This document shows positions 1-9,666 of a DNA stretch of 64,000 nucleotides, piece after piece. The notes under the pieces are model-generated. The model made no database searches. It saw only the letters and a list, made by a program, of their open reading frames with translations, and was not told the origin of the DNA. The translations under genes and the position numbers were made by a program. Position 1 is the first letter of the stretch. Each line of letters opens with the position of its first letter. The stretch comes from Escherichia coli (lineage in GTDB: Bacteria; Pseudomonadota; Gammaproteobacteria; Enterobacterales; Enterobacteriaceae): NCBI RefSeq assembly GCF_029227855.1, contig NZ_CP074356.1. One strand, 5' to 3'.

Positions 1-698
1 CTGGTTCGATGATGATTGGTTATGCCGGAATGGGCGTACCAATTGACTACCTGTTAGCGGCATCGCTGATGGCGATCCCTGGCGGTATTTTGTTTGCACG
101 TATTCTTAGCCCGGCAACCGAGCCTTCGCAGGTCACATTTGAAAATCTGTCGTTCAGCGAAACGCCGCCAAAAAGCTTTATCGAAGCAGCGGCGAGCGGT
201 GCGATGACCGGGTTGAAAATCGCCGCTGGTGTGGCGACGGTGGTAATGGCGTTTGTCGCAATTATTGCGCTGATCAACGGTATTATCGGCGGAATTGGCG
301 GCTGGTTTGGTTTTGCCAATGCTTCTCTGGAAAGTATTTTTGGCTATGTGCTGGCACCGCTGGCGTGGATCATGGGCGTGGACTGGAGTGATGCCAACCT
401 TGCGGGTAGCCTGATTGGGCAGAAACTGGCGATTAACGAATTTGTCGCTTACCTGAGTTTCTCCCCATACCTGCAAACGGGCGGCACGCTGGAAGTGAAA
501 ACCGTGGCGATTATCTCCTTTGCGCTTTGTGGTTTTGCTAACTTTGGTTCTATCGGTGTTGTCGTTGGGGCGTTTTCGGCTATTTCGCCAAAACGTGCTC
601 CAGAAATCGCCCAGCTTGGTTTACGGGCGCTGGCAGCAGCAACGCTTTCCAACCTGATGAGCGCGACCATTGCCGGGTTCTTTATTGGTTTAGCTTGA
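1..698 (+). CDS. psuT: Nucleoside transporter (NupC/CNT family), 5'-truncated by window edge; paralogue of nupX
   Basis: ORF 9..698 is open to the window start; C-terminal part closely parallels the 2635..3885 product; position next to yeiL/rihB. Confidence 0.8.
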   Translation, partial: GSMMIGYAGMGVPIDYLLAASLMAIPGGILFARILSPATEPSQVTFENLSFSETPPKSFIEAAASGAMTGLKIAAGVATVVMAFVAIIALINGIIGGIGGWFGFANASLESIFGYVLAPLAWIMGVDWSDANLAGSLIGQKLAINEFVAYLSFSPYLQTGGTLEVKTVAIISFALCGFANFGSIGVVVGAFSAISPKRAPEIAQLGLRALAAATLSNLMSATIAGFFIGLA

Positions 699-765
699 GT
701 TTCATTGCCGGATGTACGCGCTTATTAAGTGTTGCATCCGGCAATCGCGCTATTGCAAATAATTT

Positions 766-1425
766 TTACTGCATCATCCCGGAGAATTTATTCTCCGGGT
801 CCATCTCCAGCGCCAGTCCTGACAACTGCTTTCTGTTTTTAATTAGATACCCTTTCTTGCTTTTAATTAATAAACCGTCGTGAATGAATTGCGCGAGAAC
901 ATATAAAAGATGTCGATAAGAAACGCCTAAATACTCTGCCGCTTGCGTATGCTTTTCGTGATAAAGATCACCTTCCTGCGAGAGTAATATAAATGCTGCC
1001 AGGCGATTCACTAACGGAAATGATTGATTCTGAGTTAAAGAAACAATATTACGGTAATTTTTATGACTTAAGGTGACGCAGAGTTTTCGTAAAAATAGCG
1101 TGTCGTTTAATAACACCGGGCGGTAATGTTTCATAGGGAGCGCAAGGCACCAACACTCTTCAATAGCCTGCACCGCACGCGGTTCATGGTCTTTGTCGAT
1201 TAACTCAATCTCGCCAATAAAACAGGGAGCGGCAAAGAAATCGATCAGCGACACGCGACCATTAGCAAGCGTGGCGTAAAGCCTGGCGCGGCCTCGCGTC
1301 AGGTAAAACAGCCAGGACGGCTGTTGCCCTTCCTGCACAATGTAGTCACGCGCTAAAAAATGAAACAGCCGCGTATCGGCTGAAACATCCGTTGAAAAGC
1401 AATCCTTAAACGCGGATTCACTCAT
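766..1425 (-). CDS. yeiL: Crp/Fnr-family transcriptional regulator YeiL
   Basis: ORF 766..1464; start trimmed to the internal Met of [10 protein letters not shown].. from recalled K-12 N-terminus; C-terminal HTH. Confidence 0.75.
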
Positions 1426-1593
1426 CAATTGCTGCTTAAGATCATTATTGTGGATTTCTTTCACGATGTTTATCCGCTATGAGATTTCTCATATTTAGCA
1501 TACGTACGCTGTTGTTAAGATTCAATCATCGGCCCGGTCGAATTTTCTTTGCTGTAGAAAAAATAACGCAACTGGAAACAGAGGAAATAAACA

Positions 1594-2535
1594 ATGGAAA
1601 AGAGAAAAATTATTCTGGATTGTGATCCGGGTCATGATGATGCTATTGCAATGATGATGGCAGCGAAACATCCGGCAATAGATTTATTAGGCATCACCAT
1701 TGTGGCGGGTAATCAGACGCTTGATAAAACATTAATTAATGGCCTGAATGTTTGCCAGAAACTGGAGATTAATGTTCCGGTTTATGCGGGGATGCCACAG
1801 CCCATTATGCGTCAACAAATCGTTGCCGATAATATTCACGGTGAAACCGGACTTGATGGCCCGGTATTCGGGCCGCTGACCCGCCAGGCAGAAAGCACTC
1901 ATGCGGTGAAATATATCATCGATACCCTGATGGCAAGTGATGGCGATATCACTCTGGTGCCGGTTGGTCCACTTTCAAACATCGCGGTGGCAATGCGTAT
2001 GCAACCCGCGATCCTGCCGAAAATCCGTGAAATTGTGCTGATGGGCGGCGCTTACGGTACTGGCAACTTTACGCCATCCGCCGAGTTCAACATCTTTGCT
2101 GACCCGGAAGCCGCACGCGTGGTGTTCACCTCCGGCGTTCCATTAGTGATGATGGGCCTCGATCTCACCAACCAGACCGTTTGCACCCCGGACGTGATTG
2201 CACGGATGGAAAGGGCAGGCGGCCCCGCCGGAGAGCTGTTCAGCGACATCATGAACTTCACTCTCAAAACGCAGTTCGAAAACTACGGCCTTGCTGGCGG
2301 CCCGGTGCACGACGCCACCTGCATCGGTTATCTGATCAACCCTGATGGCATTAAAACCCAGGATATGTACGTCGAAGTGGACGTCAACAGCGGCCCTTGC
2401 TATGGGCGTACGGTCTGCGACGAACTGGGCGTTCTTGGCAAGCCCGCCAATACCAAAGTCGGCATCACTATTGATACTGACTGGTTCTGGGGATTAGTCG
2501 AAGAGTGCGTGCGCGGCTACATCAAAACCCATTAA
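1594..2535 (+). CDS. rihB: Pyrimidine-specific ribonucleoside hydrolase RihB
   Basis: 313 aa; N-terminal DCDPGHDD nucleoside-hydrolase motif. Confidence 0.9.
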
Positions 2536-2634
2536 GTGTTGATAACAAGCCGGGTCAGTATCGCAAGATGCAGGCCCGGCTATTTCTGATGGGCAGAAAG
2601 CCGTCGCCCAAAATGACATGAAGAGATAATAACT

Positions 2635-3885
2635 ATGGATGTCATGAGAAGTGTTCTGGGAATGGTGGTATTGCTGGCAATTGCGTTTTTGCTGTCAGTA
2701 AACAAGAAGAAGATCAGCCTGCGTACCGTTGGCGCGGCGTTAGTGTTACAGGTCGTGATTGGCGGCATTATGCTTTGGTTACCGCCAGGGCGTTGGGTCG
2801 CTGAAAAAGTCGCTTTTGGCGTGCATAAAGTGATGGCGTACAGCGACGCGGGTAGCGCATTTATCTTTGGTTCTCTGGTCGGACCGAAAATGGACATCTT
2901 ATTTGATGGCGCTGGATTTATCTTTGGTTTCAGGGTATTACCGGCAATTATCTTCGTTACAGCACTGGTGAGTATTCTCTACTACATCGGTGTGATGGGG
3001 ATCTTAATTCGCATTCTCGGCGGTATATTCCAGAAAGCATTGAATATCAGCAAGATTGAGTCATTCGTCGCTGTCACTACCATTTTCCTCGGGCAAAACG
3101 AAATTCCGGCAATCGTCAAACCCTTTATCGATCGTCTGAATCGCAATGAATTATTTACGGCTATTTGTAGTGGCATGGCCTCGATTGCTGGTTCGACAAT
3201 GATTGGTTACGCCGCACTGGGCGTGCCTGTGGAATATCTGCTAGCGGCATCGTTAATGGCGATCCCCGGCGGGATCTTGTTTGCCCGCCTGTTAAGCCCG
3301 GCTACCGAATCTTCGCAGGTTTCCTTTAATAACCTCTCTTTCACCGAAACACCGCCAAAAAGCATTATTGAAGCCGCCGCTACAGGGGCAATGACCGGAC
3401 TGAAAATCGCCGCAGGTGTGGCGACAGTAGTGATGGCATTTGTCGCCATCATTGCGTTAATTAACGGTATTATCGGCGGCGTTGGCGGCTGGTTTGGTTT
3501 TGAACATGCCTCGCTGGAGTCCATTTTAGGTTACCTGCTGGCCCCACTGGCGTGGGTAATGGGTGTTGACTGGACTGATGCGAATCTTGCCGGGAGTTTG
3601 ATTGGACAGAAACTGGCAATAAATGAATTTGTCGCTTATCTCAATTTCTCACCCTATCTGCAAACGGCTGGCACTCTGGATACTAAAACCGTGGCGATTA
3701 TTTCTTTCGCGTTGTGCGGTTTCGCTAACTTTGGTTCTATCGGGGTGGTGGTGGGGGCGTTTTCTGCGGTTGCGCCACACCGTGCGCCGGAAATCGCCCA
3801 GCTTGGTTTACGCGCGCTGGCAGCGGCGACACTTTCTAACCTGATGAGTGCCACCATTGCAGGATTCTTTATTGGCTTAGTGTAG
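2635..3885 (+). CDS. nupX: Nucleoside permease NupX (NupC family)
   Basis: 416 aa polytopic membrane protein; paralogue of the psuT fragment at window start. Confidence 0.85.
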   Translation: MDVMRSVLGMVVLLAIAFLLSVNKKKISLRTVGAALVLQVVIGGIMLWLPPGRWVAEKVAFGVHKVMAYSDAGSAFIFGSLVGPKMDILFDGAGFIFGFRVLPAIIFVTALVSILYYIGVMGILIRILGGIFQKALNISKIESFVAVTTIFLGQNEIPAIVKPFIDRLNRNELFTAICSGMASIAGSTMIGYAALGVPVEYLLAASLMAIPGGILFARLLSPATESSQVSFNNLSFTETPPKSIIEAAATGAMTGLKIAAGVATVVMAFVAIIALINGIIGGVGGWFGFEHASLESILGYLLAPLAWVMGVDWTDANLAGSLIGQKLAINEFVAYLNFSPYLQTAGTLDTKTVAIISFALCGFANFGSIGVVVGAFSAVAPHRAPEIAQLGLRALAAATLSNLMSATIAGFFIGLV

Positions 3886-3897
3886 TGCGCGATTTAT

Positions 3898-3933
3898 GAG
3901 CCGGATAAGACGCGGTCAAGCGTCGAATCCGGC
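3898..3933. repeat. REP-like palindromic element
   Basis: gccggataagacgcg...cgtcgaatccggc imperfect palindrome between convergent nupX and yeiI. Confidence 0.6.
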
Positions 3934-3940
3934 AACATTG

Positions 3941-5029
3941 TTACACCATCGGCACTAATGAAAGCGCGTTATCGGCAGACAGGGTAGGGTTGTTTAAGCT
4001 GCCGCTGGCGCGTGAAATTGCCGCGCAGGCCATCGCAAAATGGGCGCTGTCACGGAAATTGTTTCCCTCCAGAAAGCTATATACCAGGCCCGCCATAAAA
4101 CCATCGTCAGCACCAAAACTGTCTACTGTCGTATGCGCTGGTGCGGTCAGCAAAAATTGTTCTCCATCCTTTTCGCTGCAATAAACAGACTCATCGGGCA
4201 AATAAACAAACAGTTGCTGAACGCCTTGCTGATGCAACGCATTCACTGCGGCATTACGGTCAGCATCGCTGGTGATCGCCTGTCCCCATAAAATTTCCAG
4301 CTCCGGTAAAGTGGGTTTCAGGGTGTGAATATGCGCCAGCCAGTGTTTGATTTTGCCCGCTTTGAATTCTGAAACGGTATCGACAAACACCGGGATTTCA
4401 TCAGCGAGGGTAAAGACCCACTCCAGCGCCTCGGCTGTCAGGTTGCAATCAGCCAGTACCACGCCCGCATGACGAAGTAAATCGCGCGACCCGTTCAGTA
4501 GTTGCGGTGTCAACTGATCCAGCAGATGGGTATCGTTAATCGCCAGCACGGTTTGATCGTCTCGATTGGCAATTGCCAGATACGTCGATGTGCTTTGACC
4601 ATGTAAACGAACGCAGCCGGAGACATTCACGCCGGCGCGGCGCGTTTCTTCCAGGAGCATTTCGCCATAAAAGTCATCGCCAATCACTGAAAGCAAATGG
4701 ACGTCGCGGCCTAACAGCGCCAGATTGTGGGCGATATTGCGTCCAACGCCGCCTGCCGAGCAATGAATTGTACCGGGATGAGAAGCCGCTTGCGGGTAAC
4801 GGATATCCGCCATCCCGCGAATATCCATATTGATTGTCCCCACCACTACGCAGTATTCCTGCTCGGTGAGAATGTAACCTTTGCCTTTAATCCGACCTTT
4901 GCGCATTAAATCCATAATATGCGCCGCAACACGCGAACGGCTGATTTGCAGCATGTCCGCAATTTCGTTCTGCTGAATCAGCGGGTTACGCCGTAAAATT
5001 GCAAGGATCTCCTTCTCCCGGTTGTTCAT
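3941..5029 (-). CDS. yeiI: HTH-domain sugar/nucleoside kinase (PfkB family) YeiI
   Basis: 362 aa; N-terminal HTH followed by ribokinase-like domain. Confidence 0.8.
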   Translation of the reverse strand: MNNREKEILAILRRNPLIQQNEIADMLQISRSRVAAHIMDLMRKGRIKGKGYILTEQEYCVVVGTINMDIRGMADIRYPQAASHPGTIHCSAGGVGRNIAHNLALLGRDVHLLSVIGDDFYGEMLLEETRRAGVNVSGCVRLHGQSTSTYLAIANRDDQTVLAINDTHLLDQLTPQLLNGSRDLLRHAGVVLADCNLTAEALEWVFTLADEIPVFVDTVSEFKAGKIKHWLAHIHTLKPTLPELEILWGQAITSDADRNAAVNALHQQGVQQLFVYLPDESVYCSEKDGEQFLLTAPAHTTVDSFGADDGFMAGLVYSFLEGNNFRDSAHFAMACAAISRASGSLNNPTLSADNALSLVPMV

Positions 5030-7992: not shown

Positions 7993-8196
7993 GTTGCTGT
8001 ACAAGAACATGCTGGTGCTGTGTCGATTTCGTGACGCAGCGCCCTCAGCATGCATTCGCCAGAAAAGAGATTGGCTGCTTTACTTATAATCCCTGGGCGA
8101 TCATGAAGGTGTCTTATAACCGTGTATTTCTGCCGGAAGGATTGCCAATCGTCTGCTACAATCGCGCCTCATTTTTAAGATGGATAGCATTTTTGT

Positions 8197-9666
8197 ATGG
8201 GTTCCGAAACTAAAACTACAGAAGCGCCGGGCTTACGCCGTGAATTAAAGGCGCGTCACCTGACGATGATTGCCATTGGCGGTTCCATCGGTACAGGTCT
8301 TTTTGTTGCCTCTGGCGCAACGATTTCTCAGGCAGGTCCGGGCGGGGCGTTGCTCTCGTATATGTTGATTGGCCTGATGGTTTACTTCCTGATGACCAGT
8401 CTCGGTGAACTGGCTGCATATATGCCGGTTTCCGGTTCGTTTGCCACTTACGGTCAGAACTATGTTGAAGAAGGCTTTGGCTTCGCGCTGGGCTGGAACT
8501 ACTGGTACAACTGGGCGGTAACTATCGCCGTTGACCTGGTTGCAGCTCAGCTGGTCATGAGCTGGTGGTTCCCGGATACACCGGGCTGGATCTGGAGTGC
8601 GCTGTTCCTCGGCGTTATCTTCCTGCTGAACTACATCTCAGTTCGTGGCTTTGGTGAAGCGGAATACTGGTTCTCACTGATCAAAGTCACGACAGTTATT
8701 GTCTTTATCATCGTTGGCGTGCTGATGATTATCGGTATCTTCAAAGGCGCGCAGCCTGCGGGCTGGAGCAACTGGACAATCGGCGAAGCGCCGTTTGCTG
8801 GTGGTTTTGCGGCGATGATCGGCGTAGCTATGATTGTCGGCTTCTCTTTCCAGGGAACCGAGCTGATCGGTATTGCTGCAGGCGAGTCCGAAGATCCGGC
8901 GAAAAACATTCCACGCGCGGTACGTCAGGTGTTCTGGCGAATCCTGTTGTTCTATGTGTTCGCGATCCTGATTATCAGCCTGATTATTCCGTACACCGAT
9001 CCGAGCCTGCTGCGTAACGATGTTAAAGACATCAGCGTCAGTCCGTTCACCCTGGTATTCCAGCACGCGGGTCTGCTCTCTGCGGCGGCGGTGATGAACG
9101 CAGTTATTCTGACGGCGGTGCTGTCAGCGGGTAACTCCGGTATGTATGCGTCTACTCGTATGCTGTACACCCTGGCGTGTGACGGTAAAGCGCCGCGCAT
9201 TTTCGCTAAACTGTCGCGTGGTGGCGTGCCGCGTAATGCGCTGTATGCGACGACGGTGATTGCCGGTCTGTGCTTCCTGACCTCCATGTTTGGCAACCAG
9301 ACGGTATACCTGTGGCTGCTGAACACCTCCGGGATGACGGGCTTTATCGCCTGGCTGGGGATTGCCATTAGCCACTATCGCTTCCGTCGCGGGTACGTAT
9401 TGCAGGGACACGACATTAACGATCTGCCGTACCGTTCAGGTTTCTTCCCACTGGGGCCGATCTTCGCATTCATTCTGTGTCTGATTATCACTTTGGGCCA
9501 GAACTACGAAGCGTTCCTGAAAGATACCATTGACTGGGGCGGCGTAGCGGCAACGTATATTGGTATCCCGCTGTTCCTGATTATTTGGTTCGGCTACAAG
9601 CTGATTAAAGGAACTCACTTCGTACGTTACAGCGAAATGAAGTTCCCGCAGAACGATAAGAAATAA
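8197..9666 (+). CDS. lysP: Lysine-specific permease LysP (APC family)
   Basis: 489 aa, 12-TM amino-acid permease. Confidence 0.9.
   Translation: MGSETKTTEAPGLRRELKARHLTMIAIGGSIGTGLFVASGATISQAGPGGALLSYMLIGLMVYFLMTSLGELAAYMPVSGSFATYGQNYVEEGFGFALGWNYWYNWAVTIAVDLVAAQLVMSWWFPDTPGWIWSALFLGVIFLLNYISVRGFGEAEYWFSLIKVTTVIVFIIVGVLMIIGIFKGAQPAGWSNWTIGEAPFAGGFAAMIGVAMIVGFSFQGTELIGIAAGESEDPAKNIPRAVRQVFWRILLFYVFAILIISLIIPYTDPSLLRNDVKDISVSPFTLVFQHAGLLSAAAVMNAVILTAVLSAGNSGMYASTRMLYTLACDGKAPRIFAKLSRGGVPRNALYATTVIAGLCFLTSMFGNQTVYLWLLNTSGMTGFIAWLGIAISHYRFRRGYVLQGHDINDLPYRSGFFPLGPIFAFILCLIITLGQNYEAFLKDTIDWGGVAATYIGIPLFLIIWFGYKLIKGTHFVRYSEMKFPQNDKK

Follow-up and report, generated by a model that had tools for sequence, protein, structure and literature searches.

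Introduction

The CNT-family transporters of solved structure, vcCNT (PDB 3TIJ) and CNT_NW (PDB 5L26), are full-length homologs of Escherichia coli PsuT and NupX, with E-values of about 1e-125 to 1e-132. The HP1 GQxE, HP2 NEF, and TM7 FANxxS motifs align between the structures and the two E. coli proteins, and the numbering is identical up to about residue 232. Johnson et al. 2012 reportedly assigned nucleoside binding in vcCNT to Q154 and E156 of HP1, E332 of HP2, and F366, N368, and S371 of TM7. Position 188 forms the nucleobase pocket of vcCNT together with G187 and L259 (PMC4139061). Position 187 is glycine in vcCNT, while both E. coli paralogs and CNT_NW carry serine.

E. coli NupC shares its Pfam family and general role, cation-coupled nucleoside uptake, with PsuT and NupX, but it represents the other major bacterial CNT clade with about 30% identity and lies outside the psuT/nupX duplication (PMC11241209; PMC3368855). 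In the literature, PsuT and NupX already figure as the two CNT paralogs that E. coli has besides NupC (PMC11241209; PMC3368855). Weak, low-efficiency transport of uridine and cytidine was described for NupX, while transport of uridine, cytidine, and xanthosine was not detected for PsuT (PMC11241209), which is presumed to import pseudouridine (PMC11241209; PMC12500856). The pair is known and ordinary, and its pairing is textbook-level annotation that alters nothing.

In E. coli K-12, PsuT/YeiM (b2164, P33024) and NupX/YeiJ (b2161, P33021) are encoded by the same genes as those analyzed here and in the same order, namely psuK-psuG-psuT, yeiL, rihB-nupX, and yeiI.

Genomic context and feature inventory

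The window is a 64,000 nt stretch of an E. coli chromosome (NCBI RefSeq assembly GCF_029227855.1, contig NZ_CP074356.1), whose RefSeq annotation gives psuT, yeiL (minus strand), rihB, nupX, and yeiI (minus strand) in this region (Table 1). The window gave a 100% match to E. coli JNEC-KY178. The window strain is 96.3% identical to K-12 in the nucleotides of psuT and 95.4% in those of nupX, and its psuG is annotated as frameshifted by RefSeq. A hairpin also appears to be present in the rihB-nupX spacer of other genera, judging by sequence, where the sequence itself differs.

Table 1. Features of the psuT-nupX region, numbered from the first nucleotide of the window.
Feature	Position	Strand	Remarks
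psuT (yeiM), 3' 698 nt	1..698	+	Start removed by window edge; C-terminal 231 residues; RefSeq
REP-like palindrome, end type A	699..744	+	Directly 3' of psuT stop; TTGCCGGATG...CATCCGGCAA; six-strain comparison
yeiL, CRP/FNR-family regulator	766..1464	-	Pfam PF00027 and PF13545; first gene of the yeiL-rihB-nupX cassette
rihB, pyrimidine ribonucleoside hydrolase	1594..2535	+	Pfam PF01156, E = 2e-97; RefSeq; directly upstream of nupX on the same strand
Stem-loop 3' of rihB stop	2548..2581	+	AGCCGGG...CCCGGCT; RNA fold; without homology to the psuT side
nupX 5' leader part homologous to psuT leader	2582..2634	+	Self-blastn, alignment
Conserved leader stem-loop	2589..2611	+	6-bp stem RYGGGC/GCCCRY, 11-nt loop AGNNNGNNGTC
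nupX (yeiJ), complete CNT-family transporter, psuT paralog	2635..3885	+	Pfam PF01773, PF07670, PF07662
REP-like palindrome, end type B	3886..3935	+	3' of nupX stop
yeiI, HTH and PfkB sugar kinase	3941..5029	-	blastp, Pfam
Antisense ORF in psuT, 90 aa, TTG start	47..319	-	Not a gene
Antisense ORF in nupX, 105 aa	3207..3524	-	Mirrors 47..319; not a gene

The coding sequences of psuT and nupX are separated in E. coli by 1936 bp containing yeiL and rihB, and this gene pair was found in 5418 of 5426 complete E. coli genomes. One genome lacking it, TUM2820, was considered as a paralog-mediated deletion and rejected, as the genes were lost through a deletion by ISKpn26, of the IS5 family, that extends from yeiL into nfo. 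The region is also flanked by a second pair of paralogs, the PfkB kinases psuK and yeiI. As these share only 39% amino acid identity and yeiI carries an extra N-terminal HTH domain compared to psuK, they form a far older pair, separate from the psuT/nupX duplication.

Paralogy of psuT and nupX

Full-length psuT was recovered from the DNA flanking the window. Both genes comprise 1251 nt and 416 aa and align without gaps, with 994 of 1251 nucleotides (79.5%) and 88.2% of amino acids identical, and the alignment of window positions 1-698 with 3188-3885 is likewise gapless. Both LLAASLMAIPGGILFAR and FANFGSIGVVVGAFSA, cited in an earlier, sequence-only reading of the window as common to the psuT fragment and nupX, were found in each of the ORFs 9..698(+) and 2635..3885(+).

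The homology extends beyond the coding sequence. Self-blastn matched the two genes over 1267 nt (E = 0), beginning 21 nt before the ATG, and a leader patch at 2582-2609 is identical to the psuT side in 27 of 28 nt. In the 5' leader of nupX, homology covers about 55 nt in total, reaching about 95 nt upstream of the psuT start, and on the 3' side a REP-like palindrome after the stop is common to both genes. The two genes are thus paralogs by DNA duplication, with colinear nucleotide homology running past the coding sequence into non-coding flanks, and the similarity is not confined to the protein level.

A Ka of 0.075 and a Ks of about 1.25 were obtained between psuT and nupX, with a Ka/Ks of 0.06 and a pS of 0.61. 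Synonymous sites are close to saturation, although homology at the DNA level is plain.

Three Pfam domains, Nucleos_tra2_N, Gate, and Nucleos_tra2_C, were identified in nupX with 80.6, 56.3, and 241.7 bits, respectively, all above the gathering score. The psuT fragment matched PF07662 with 244.5 bits (E = 1e-72), which is the only domain of psuT inside the window. Against the solved structures, nupX reached E = 4e-130 to CNT_NW and 5e-125 to vcCNT, and the motifs GQNE, INEF, and GFANFGS are kept in both PsuT and NupX. Pfam domains as well as structural homology and motifs place the pair in the CNT/NupC/SLC28 family, and the closely related NupC-family C-termini noticed earlier in the two genes are those of true paralogs.

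Diagnostic residues and age of the duplication

The tree and the residue comparison were based on 22 genes from more than 10 genera, of which 10 encode psuKG-linked and 12 rihB-linked proteins. Four alignment columns, V56A, I112V, M188T, and M195L, split the psuKG-linked from the rihB-linked proteins, and the Serratia/Hafnia outgroup is psuT-like at 56, 112, and 188. In the NJ protein tree, the psuT and nupX copies of Enterobacteriaceae formed a clade with 100% bootstrap against the psuKG-linked genes of Serratia and Hafnia, which are 73% identical to both psuT and nupX. No genome's two copies grouped together among the 22 genes. The deep nodes of this tree had very low bootstrap values of 3-36%, so the monophyly of the rihB-linked proteins rests mainly on the four residue columns. 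For the same reason, the psuT and nupX clades were resolved by the diagnostic residues and no longer by the bootstrapped tree.

At synonymous sites, E. coli nupX is 79.6% identical to E. coli psuT, compared to 75.7-77.5% to the rihB-linked genes of other genera. Codon usage common to both genes, or conversion in the very distant past, could account for this slight closeness. The duplication had been called old from the window alone, and the Ks, the four clade-diagnostic residues, and the copies that never group within a genome all bear this out.

The diagnostic M188T change falls in the nucleobase pocket. Position 188 is valine in vcCNT and CNT_NW, methionine in all psuKG-linked copies, and threonine in all rihB-linked copies. 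Residue 188 is a rational first mutation to probe the discrimination between pseudouridine and uridine in CNT proteins, which bears on pseudouridine production strains.

Locus states and origin of the two cassettes

Locus states were collected from a limited sample of about 20 genomes, taken from the matches listed in a scan of the genome collection and, as many Enterobacteriaceae were missing among these, from protein searches and contig look-ups. Both cassettes in the E. coli order occur in E. coli and at loci L086, L093, and L094. At L003, L004, L005, L084, and L090, only psuKGT and yeiI are present at the site between fruA and nfo. Only yeiL-rihB-nupX is found at L083, L085, L087, and L089, and this cassette stands alone between fruA and nfo in Salmonella, Leclercia, Buttiauxella, and L087. 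It lies at another site at L011, L088, and L092 (in Superficieibacter, Dryocola, and K. spallanzanii). At L091 the order is reversed, with yeiL-rihB-nupX upstream of psuKGT and the transporters separated by psuK-psuG.

In every sampled genome with the rihB-nupX cassette, yeiL accompanies it, and yeiL-rihB-nupX behaves as a single three-gene cassette. The presence and absence of yeiI match those of psuKGT at all sampled loci, and yeiI belongs to the psuKGT set rather than to nupX. The interval between fruA and nfo is a small natural experiment in the gain, loss, and reordering of cassettes around two paralogs in direct repeat.

Directly observed are the homology and where it ends, the selection acting on the two genes, the way locus states are distributed, and the diagnostic residues. 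They are likely explained by one old duplication followed by a functional split, independent evolution in E. coli, and separable cassettes. We infer a single event, the derived state of the rihB-linked copy, and the split in function. The duplication would have taken place once Serratia and Hafnia had branched off, in an ancestor common to Escherichia, Salmonella, Citrobacter, Kluyvera, Leclercia, and their relatives, and the copied unit would have been the coding sequence with about 55-95 nt of leader on its 5' side and the REP-like palindrome after the stop. One copy would have remained behind psuK-psuG as the presumed pseudouridine importer, and the other would have become the terminal gene of the yeiL, rihB-nupX cassette, beside a pyrimidine ribonucleoside hydrolase. 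Strong purifying selection maintains both copies, and those of E. coli evolve independently, without gene conversion in the coding sequence. The two cassettes behave as separable units at the fruA to nfo site, where some lineages have both, some only one of them, and some both in reversed order.

The sequence-only reading had proposed a tandem duplication now split by yeiL and rihB. A duplication of psuT in place, with yeiL and rihB inserted between the copies later, is possible, though we would not expect it. The two cassettes share one interval between fruA and nfo in most genera, the copied block of leader, coding sequence, and REP is compact and gene-sized, as a small tandem duplication would give, and in E. 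coli the rih cassette sits within the psu set, between psuT and yeiI, like an insertion. However, no psuT-nupX pair standing directly head to tail was found among 22 sampled copies from about 20 Enterobacteriaceae genomes, and the intermediate state is hypothetical. The yeiL-rihB-nupX genes instead always occur as one block, which is found alone, at other sites, or upstream of psuKGT as in L091, and neither insertion scars nor remains of mobile elements were found beside yeiL-rihB in the window. The tandem part of the proposal is thus not borne out in this sample. A local origin of the duplication is nevertheless plausible, as both cassettes usually occupy one chromosomal interval.

Alternatively, the psuKG- and rihB-linked transporters may have diverged in separate lineages and been joined between fruA and nfo by horizontal transfer and recombination, which would make them pseudoparalogs. 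The divergence of the pair (79.5% nucleotide identity) lies within the range of orthologs between genera, such as 82.5% between the psuT genes of E. coli and C. freundii and 77.5% between the nupX genes of E. coli and Salmonella. Close relatives within Leclercia have either cassette alone or both, the cassettes are known in two different orders, and divergence within the species is high at this locus, with psuG of the window strain 93.5% identical to that of K-12. We consider this merger unlikely, however. The E. coli order of both cassettes is common to Escherichia, Citrobacter, Kluyvera, and Entomohabitans with matching psuT and nupX lineages and is therefore old, and an outgroup with the psuKG-linked form only, next to a rihB-linked clade with derived residues, fits a duplication within the family equally well.

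For the preferred single duplication, the passage from the E. coli layout to the layout with yeiL-rihB-nupX only takes two deletions, so vertical loss alone is not clearly the most economical history. Lineages may have swapped entire alleles of the locus by way of its conserved flanks.

Gene conversion and 3' ends

The 3' end of psuT with its last codons is dimorphic among E. coli, with type A in 2646 genomes and type B in 2431. For nupX, the end of the window strain (type B) was found in 4151 genomes and the K-12 type, with an extra REP, in 1267. The type B end of nupX has its homologs in the elements that follow psuT in K-12 and E. albertii. Across E. coli strains, the same two REP-linked 3' end types occur at both psuT and nupX. 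Compared to K-12, the last codons, stop, and REP arm are exchanged in the window strain, where psuT has the end type of K-12 nupX and nupX lacks the extra REP. The Rfam search of the locus gave two sub-threshold matches at chance level only, one of them to naRNA4, weak and on the minus strand, at 3899-3947, where it overlaps the REP-like element after nupX.

Ongoing conversion between the direct repeats might sustain the similarity in E. coli and let the pair look younger than its real age. At L086, a C. freundii-like locus, the two genes are 93-96% identical in their 3' halves, compared to 69-77% at positions 121-360, with an identical run of 83 nt, and this near-identical tract shows that conversion does happen in the psuT/nupX pair. 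Across E. coli strains, the last 9 nt or so of the coding sequence and the REP arm also recur in two forms shared by the genes. Against this, identity in E. coli is flat with 66-86% per 90-nt window, the longest identical run is 23 nt, and paralog identity stays at 78.2-79.6% in six E. coli strains, in which no conversion tracts were found in the psuT and nupX coding sequences. With both paralogs of the window strain and K-12 compared, only one of about 300 variable sites followed strain rather than gene. Recombination breakpoints inside E. coli psuT and nupX were rejected on these four-sequence site patterns and the flat sliding windows. Sustained conversion in E. coli is accordingly very improbable, while the extreme 3' end and the REP may have undergone a short exchange.

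A crossover between psuT and nupX was also considered for the psuKGT-yeiI layout of E. albertii, and a simple one inside the gene was rejected, as the last seven informative sites of E. albertii psuT are all of the psuT type. At about 1020-1100 this gene contains clustered sites that are nupX-like. The junction of the layout is located at the stop or beyond it, within the REP-like element common to both flanks.

Leader stem-loop

The leader stem-loop was present in 21 of 22 psuT and nupX leaders of Enterobacteriaceae. Of all cells, 94.4% were paired and three pairs had compensatory changes, and none of 500 shuffles came up to the value observed. The copy at nupX is the sole match within the window. 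No Rfam covariance model matched the psuT or nupX leader at E <= 1. A covariance model of the hairpin, searched against 1.58 Mb of loci with CNT genes 47-57% identical to psuT and of Serratia/Hafnia, found only its training sequences significant. The promoter and terminator scan of 600-4000 gave nothing in the rihB-nupX spacer and counts not above those of shuffles.

The 23-nt stem-loop may tentatively be regarded as a so far undescribed RNA element acting in cis, which would have been duplicated together with the gene and retained by both paralogs ever since, although we hold this to be rather doubtful. It could control the transporter cistron in the psuKGT and rihB-nupX operons, for instance as a site of protein binding, processing, or stability. 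In psuT-type leaders, it could act with a downstream terminator-like hairpin and a hairpin covering the start codon. For two operons that are poorly understood, the conserved stem-loop provides a candidate regulatory element.

Antisense ORFs

Both minus-strand ORFs noted earlier exist and lie in the same frame of the homologous segment. Their frame is open in nearly all homologs, including the 73% identical outgroup, as expected from the Gly/Ala/Ile-rich codons of the sense strand. The start codon is unconserved, being TTG, ATG, or a stop in many homologs, and the ORFs did not behave as protein-coding. As had been suspected, homology of the sense strands is the only reason for their mirrored arrangement. 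A second mirrored pair, absent from the earlier reading, is located at 449..670(-) and 3654..3857(-).

Gene layout and divergence of the locus

Over its first 6 kb the window was 100% identical to the E. coli JNEC-KY178 chromosome. In the RefSeq annotation the genes were ordered psuK-psuG-psuT(+), yeiL(-), rihB-nupX(+), yeiI(-), nfo(-), a layout identical to that of K-12 MG1655. As the window begins inside psuT, only the 3' part of this gene is contained in it, and the full-length gene was taken from the 5-kb flank for comparison with nupX. The annotated yeiL start is a GTG, giving 232 aa in the window strain and 219 aa in K-12, a difference of start-codon annotation only. Compared to K-12 (window 1-5029), identity was 93.5% for psuG, 95.4% for nupX, 96.3% for psuT, and 98.95% for nfo, and the best match among other genomes reached 98.7% over 6 kb. 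Within-species divergence in this region is unusually high for core genes. The psuG gene is annotated as frameshifted in the window strain, and that of E. coli TUM2820 (L095 3691-4629) carries an internal stop; certain lineages of E. coli may be losing the pseudouridine pathway, with psuT staying intact.

Features of the locus, in window positions or in those of L001, the window strain's locus with its upstream flank
Feature	Position	Strand	Description
psuG	L001 3417-4354		immediately 5' of the window
Leader stem-loop, psuT copy	L001 4361-4383		outside the window
psuT, 3' part	1-698	+	RefSeq; Pfam CNT transporter C-terminal domain
Second antisense pair, psuT side	449-670	-	
psuT 3' end region	684-744		
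yeiL	766-1464	-	Pfam cNMP-binding and Crp-type HTH
rihB	1594-2535	+	Pfam IU-type nucleoside hydrolase
Leader stem-loop, nupX copy	2589-2611		
Predicted nupX start hairpin	2613-2645		UGACAUG...GUCAUGA
nupX	2635-3885	+	Pfam, all three CNT domains
Second antisense pair, nupX side	3654-3857	-	
nupX 3' end region	3871-3935		
yeiI	3941-5029	-	Pfam HTH and PfkB kinase

Extent of the repeated unit

The close relatedness of psuT and nupX claimed in the sequence-only reading was confirmed, and both peptides that it quoted as shared are present in both ORFs. The two genes, each of 1251 nt, are colinear and align over their full length without gaps, with 994 of 1251 bases (79.5%) and 88% of residues identical; within the window, 1-698 aligned gaplessly to 3188-3885. 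The homology is thus real at the DNA level and not confined to the protein. Nei-Gojobori estimates gave a Ka of 0.075, a Ks of 1.25, and a Ka/Ks of 0.06; synonymous sites are almost saturated and the preserved part is mostly protein. The pair itself is an ordinary one of paralogs and already known.

Self-blastn of the 16-kb locus returned psuT/nupX as the single DNA-level repeat, with a 1267-nt match beginning 21 nt 5' of the start codons and an additional 28-nt patch in the upstream spacers (27/28 identical). Both spacers have ATTTCTGAYGGGCAGAAAGCCGTCGCCC and the ribosome-binding region in common, and the psuT spacer contains an additional 41 nt forming a terminator-like hairpin. Directly 3' of both genes lies a REP-like palindrome, of which the copy following nupX in the window strain is homologous to the one 3' of psuT in K-12 and E. 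albertii, and homology ends at the ends of the convergent genes yeiL and yeiI. Since leader, coding sequence, and palindrome are all shared, the copied unit comprised these three parts.

Synteny and origin of the duplication

Loci for comparison were collected by a genome-collection scan and from contigs of protein matches. The interval fruBKA ... nfo-yeiH-yeiE-lysP-cirA occurred in several states among the sampled loci. Both cassettes were present, ordered as in E. coli, in E. coli itself, C. freundii-like L086, Entomohabitans L093, and Kluyvera L094, and psuK-psuG-psuT with yeiI directly behind it was found in E. albertii L003, Citrobacter L004 and L005, Leclercia L084, and K. michiganensis L090. 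Only yeiL and rihB-nupX, without psuKGT and yeiI, were present in Salmonella L085, L. adecarboxylata L083, Buttiauxella L089, and L087. The opposite order (yeiL rihB nupX, psuK psuG psuT, yeiI) appeared in L091 (6168-13838; GCA_046366295.1, labelled Enterobacter hormaechei), where the paralogs flank psuK-psuG and not yeiL-rihB. The yeiL-rihB-nupX block was located at other positions in K. spallanzanii L088, Superficieibacter L011, and Dryocola L092. In Serratia, Hafnia, and a Klebsiella-labelled isolate, psuK-psuG is followed by a transporter with 73% identity to either of the E. coli copies. The yeiI gene, 39% identical to psuK, was present in every sampled genome with psuKGT and in none without, and it is probably a functional part of the pseudouridine set, though the rih cassette separates them in E. 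coli.

In the neighbor-joining tree, the Enterobacteriaceae copies formed one clade against the Serratia/Hafnia genes with 100% support; no genome's two copies paired, and deeper nodes were unsupported. Four columns (V56A, I112V, M188T, and M195L) separated all psuKG-linked proteins (10/10) from all rihB-linked ones (12/12), and at three of these columns the outgroup matches the psuKG-linked proteins. We conclude that a single duplication predated the divergence of these genera, that the ancestral context persisted in the psuT lineage, and that nupX is the derived copy. The sequence-only reading had proposed an old tandem duplication later split by yeiL and rihB. This is plausible in outline, as the duplication is old and probably local; its tandem-then-split part is not supported because psuT and nupX are adjacent in none of the sampled genomes, the genes of the rih cassette move together, and the two cassettes occur in either order.

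Among complete E. coli genomes, yeiL-rihB was found in 5418 of 5426, with six matches on records classed as plasmids. In TUM2820, which is among the 8 E. coli genomes without a yeiL-rihB match or the 36 with a partial one, the segment running from the 5' part of yeiL over rihB, nupX, and yeiI into nfo is deleted and replaced by the IS5-family element ISKpn26 (L095 6044-7951).

Exchange between the paralogs

No recombination between psuT and nupX was detected in the E. coli coding sequences by sliding windows, four-way comparison, and six strains. Identity ranged from 66 to 86% per 90-nt window with a longest identical run of 23 nt, 203 sites split the genes and one grouped by strain when both paralogs of the window strain and K-12 were compared, and paralog identity was 78.2-79.6% across the six strains. 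Outside E. coli, gene conversion is clear in this gene pair on the C. freundii-like metagenome contig L086 (4848-6098 vs 8001-9251), with 93-96% identity over 721-840 and 961-1260, 69-77% over 121-360, and a longest identical run of 83 nt. In E. albertii (L003), a species without nupX, a cluster of nupX-like sites at ~1020-1100 of an otherwise psuT-like gene may be the trace of an old conversion preceding loss of the rih cassette.

The 3' end, comprising the final ~9 nt of the coding region, the stop codon, and the first arm of the REP element, has two forms, each occurring on either gene. The psuT end was window-like (type A) in 2646 genomes and K-12-like (type B) in 2431, and the nupX end was window-like (type B only) in 4151 and K-12-like (type A plus B) in 1267. 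The six-strain sample showed the psuT/nupX combinations A/B, B/B, and B/A+B, with the window strain and K-12 opposite to each other. The occurrence of both forms on either gene points to REP turnover, to which short ectopic exchange possibly contributed.

A conserved stem-loop in both leaders

A stem-loop with a 6-bp stem (RYGGGC/GCCCRY) and an 11-nt loop, AGNNNGNNGTC, was present in 21 of 22 Enterobacteriaceae psuT and nupX leaders from more than ten genera. Across the 21 aligned sequences, 94.4% of cells were paired and three of six stem pairs had changes on both sides (C-G/U-A, A-U/G-C, and G-C/A-U); because the pattern used to select the sequences prescribes the pair type at the four inner positions, unbiased evidence is limited to the outer pairs and the G-C/A-U switch. 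None of 500 shuffles matched the observed pairing or covariation. These compensatory changes argue for a putative RNA-level role of the stem-loop. It had no Rfam match, and its covariance model detected no further copy in the 64-kb window and, in 76 other loci, none upstream of CNT genes that are more distantly related. In the searched loci it occurred only upstream of Enterobacteriaceae psuT/nupX genes.

A terminator-like hairpin follows 3' of the stem-loop in psuT-type leaders and in that of K. spallanzanii nupX, and every leader that was folded has its start codon inside a small predicted hairpin. That of nupX also encloses the ribosome-binding site, and in psuT-type leaders UCAUUAU-GGAU-AUAAUGA spans the AUG; the sequences differ, with the start codon covered in both.

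Transporter function and antisense ORFs

PsuT and NupX are close homologs of the structurally solved vcCNT and CNT_NW, and both retain the HP1, HP2, and TM7 binding motifs. In published assays NupX transported uridine and cytidine weakly, and transport of uridine, cytidine, and xanthosine by PsuT was undetected (PMC11241209); pseudouridine import for PsuK and PsuG is the assumed role of PsuT (PMC12500856). We infer a functional split between the two. Diagnostic residue 188 aligns with vcCNT V188, which corresponds to hCNT1 position 353 and lines the nucleo-pocket beside the base together with G187 and L259 (PMC4139061). A contribution of Met to Thr at this position to differing base recognition is plausible.

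The two antisense ORFs described in the sequence-only reading as mirroring each other do lie in the same frame of homologous segments, as does a second pair. This frame is open in nearly all homologs, outgroup included, with starts that are not conserved and are often stop codons. As that reading had implied, the antisense ORFs are a by-product of the sense gene, which encodes a membrane protein rich in Gly, Ala, Ile, and Val.
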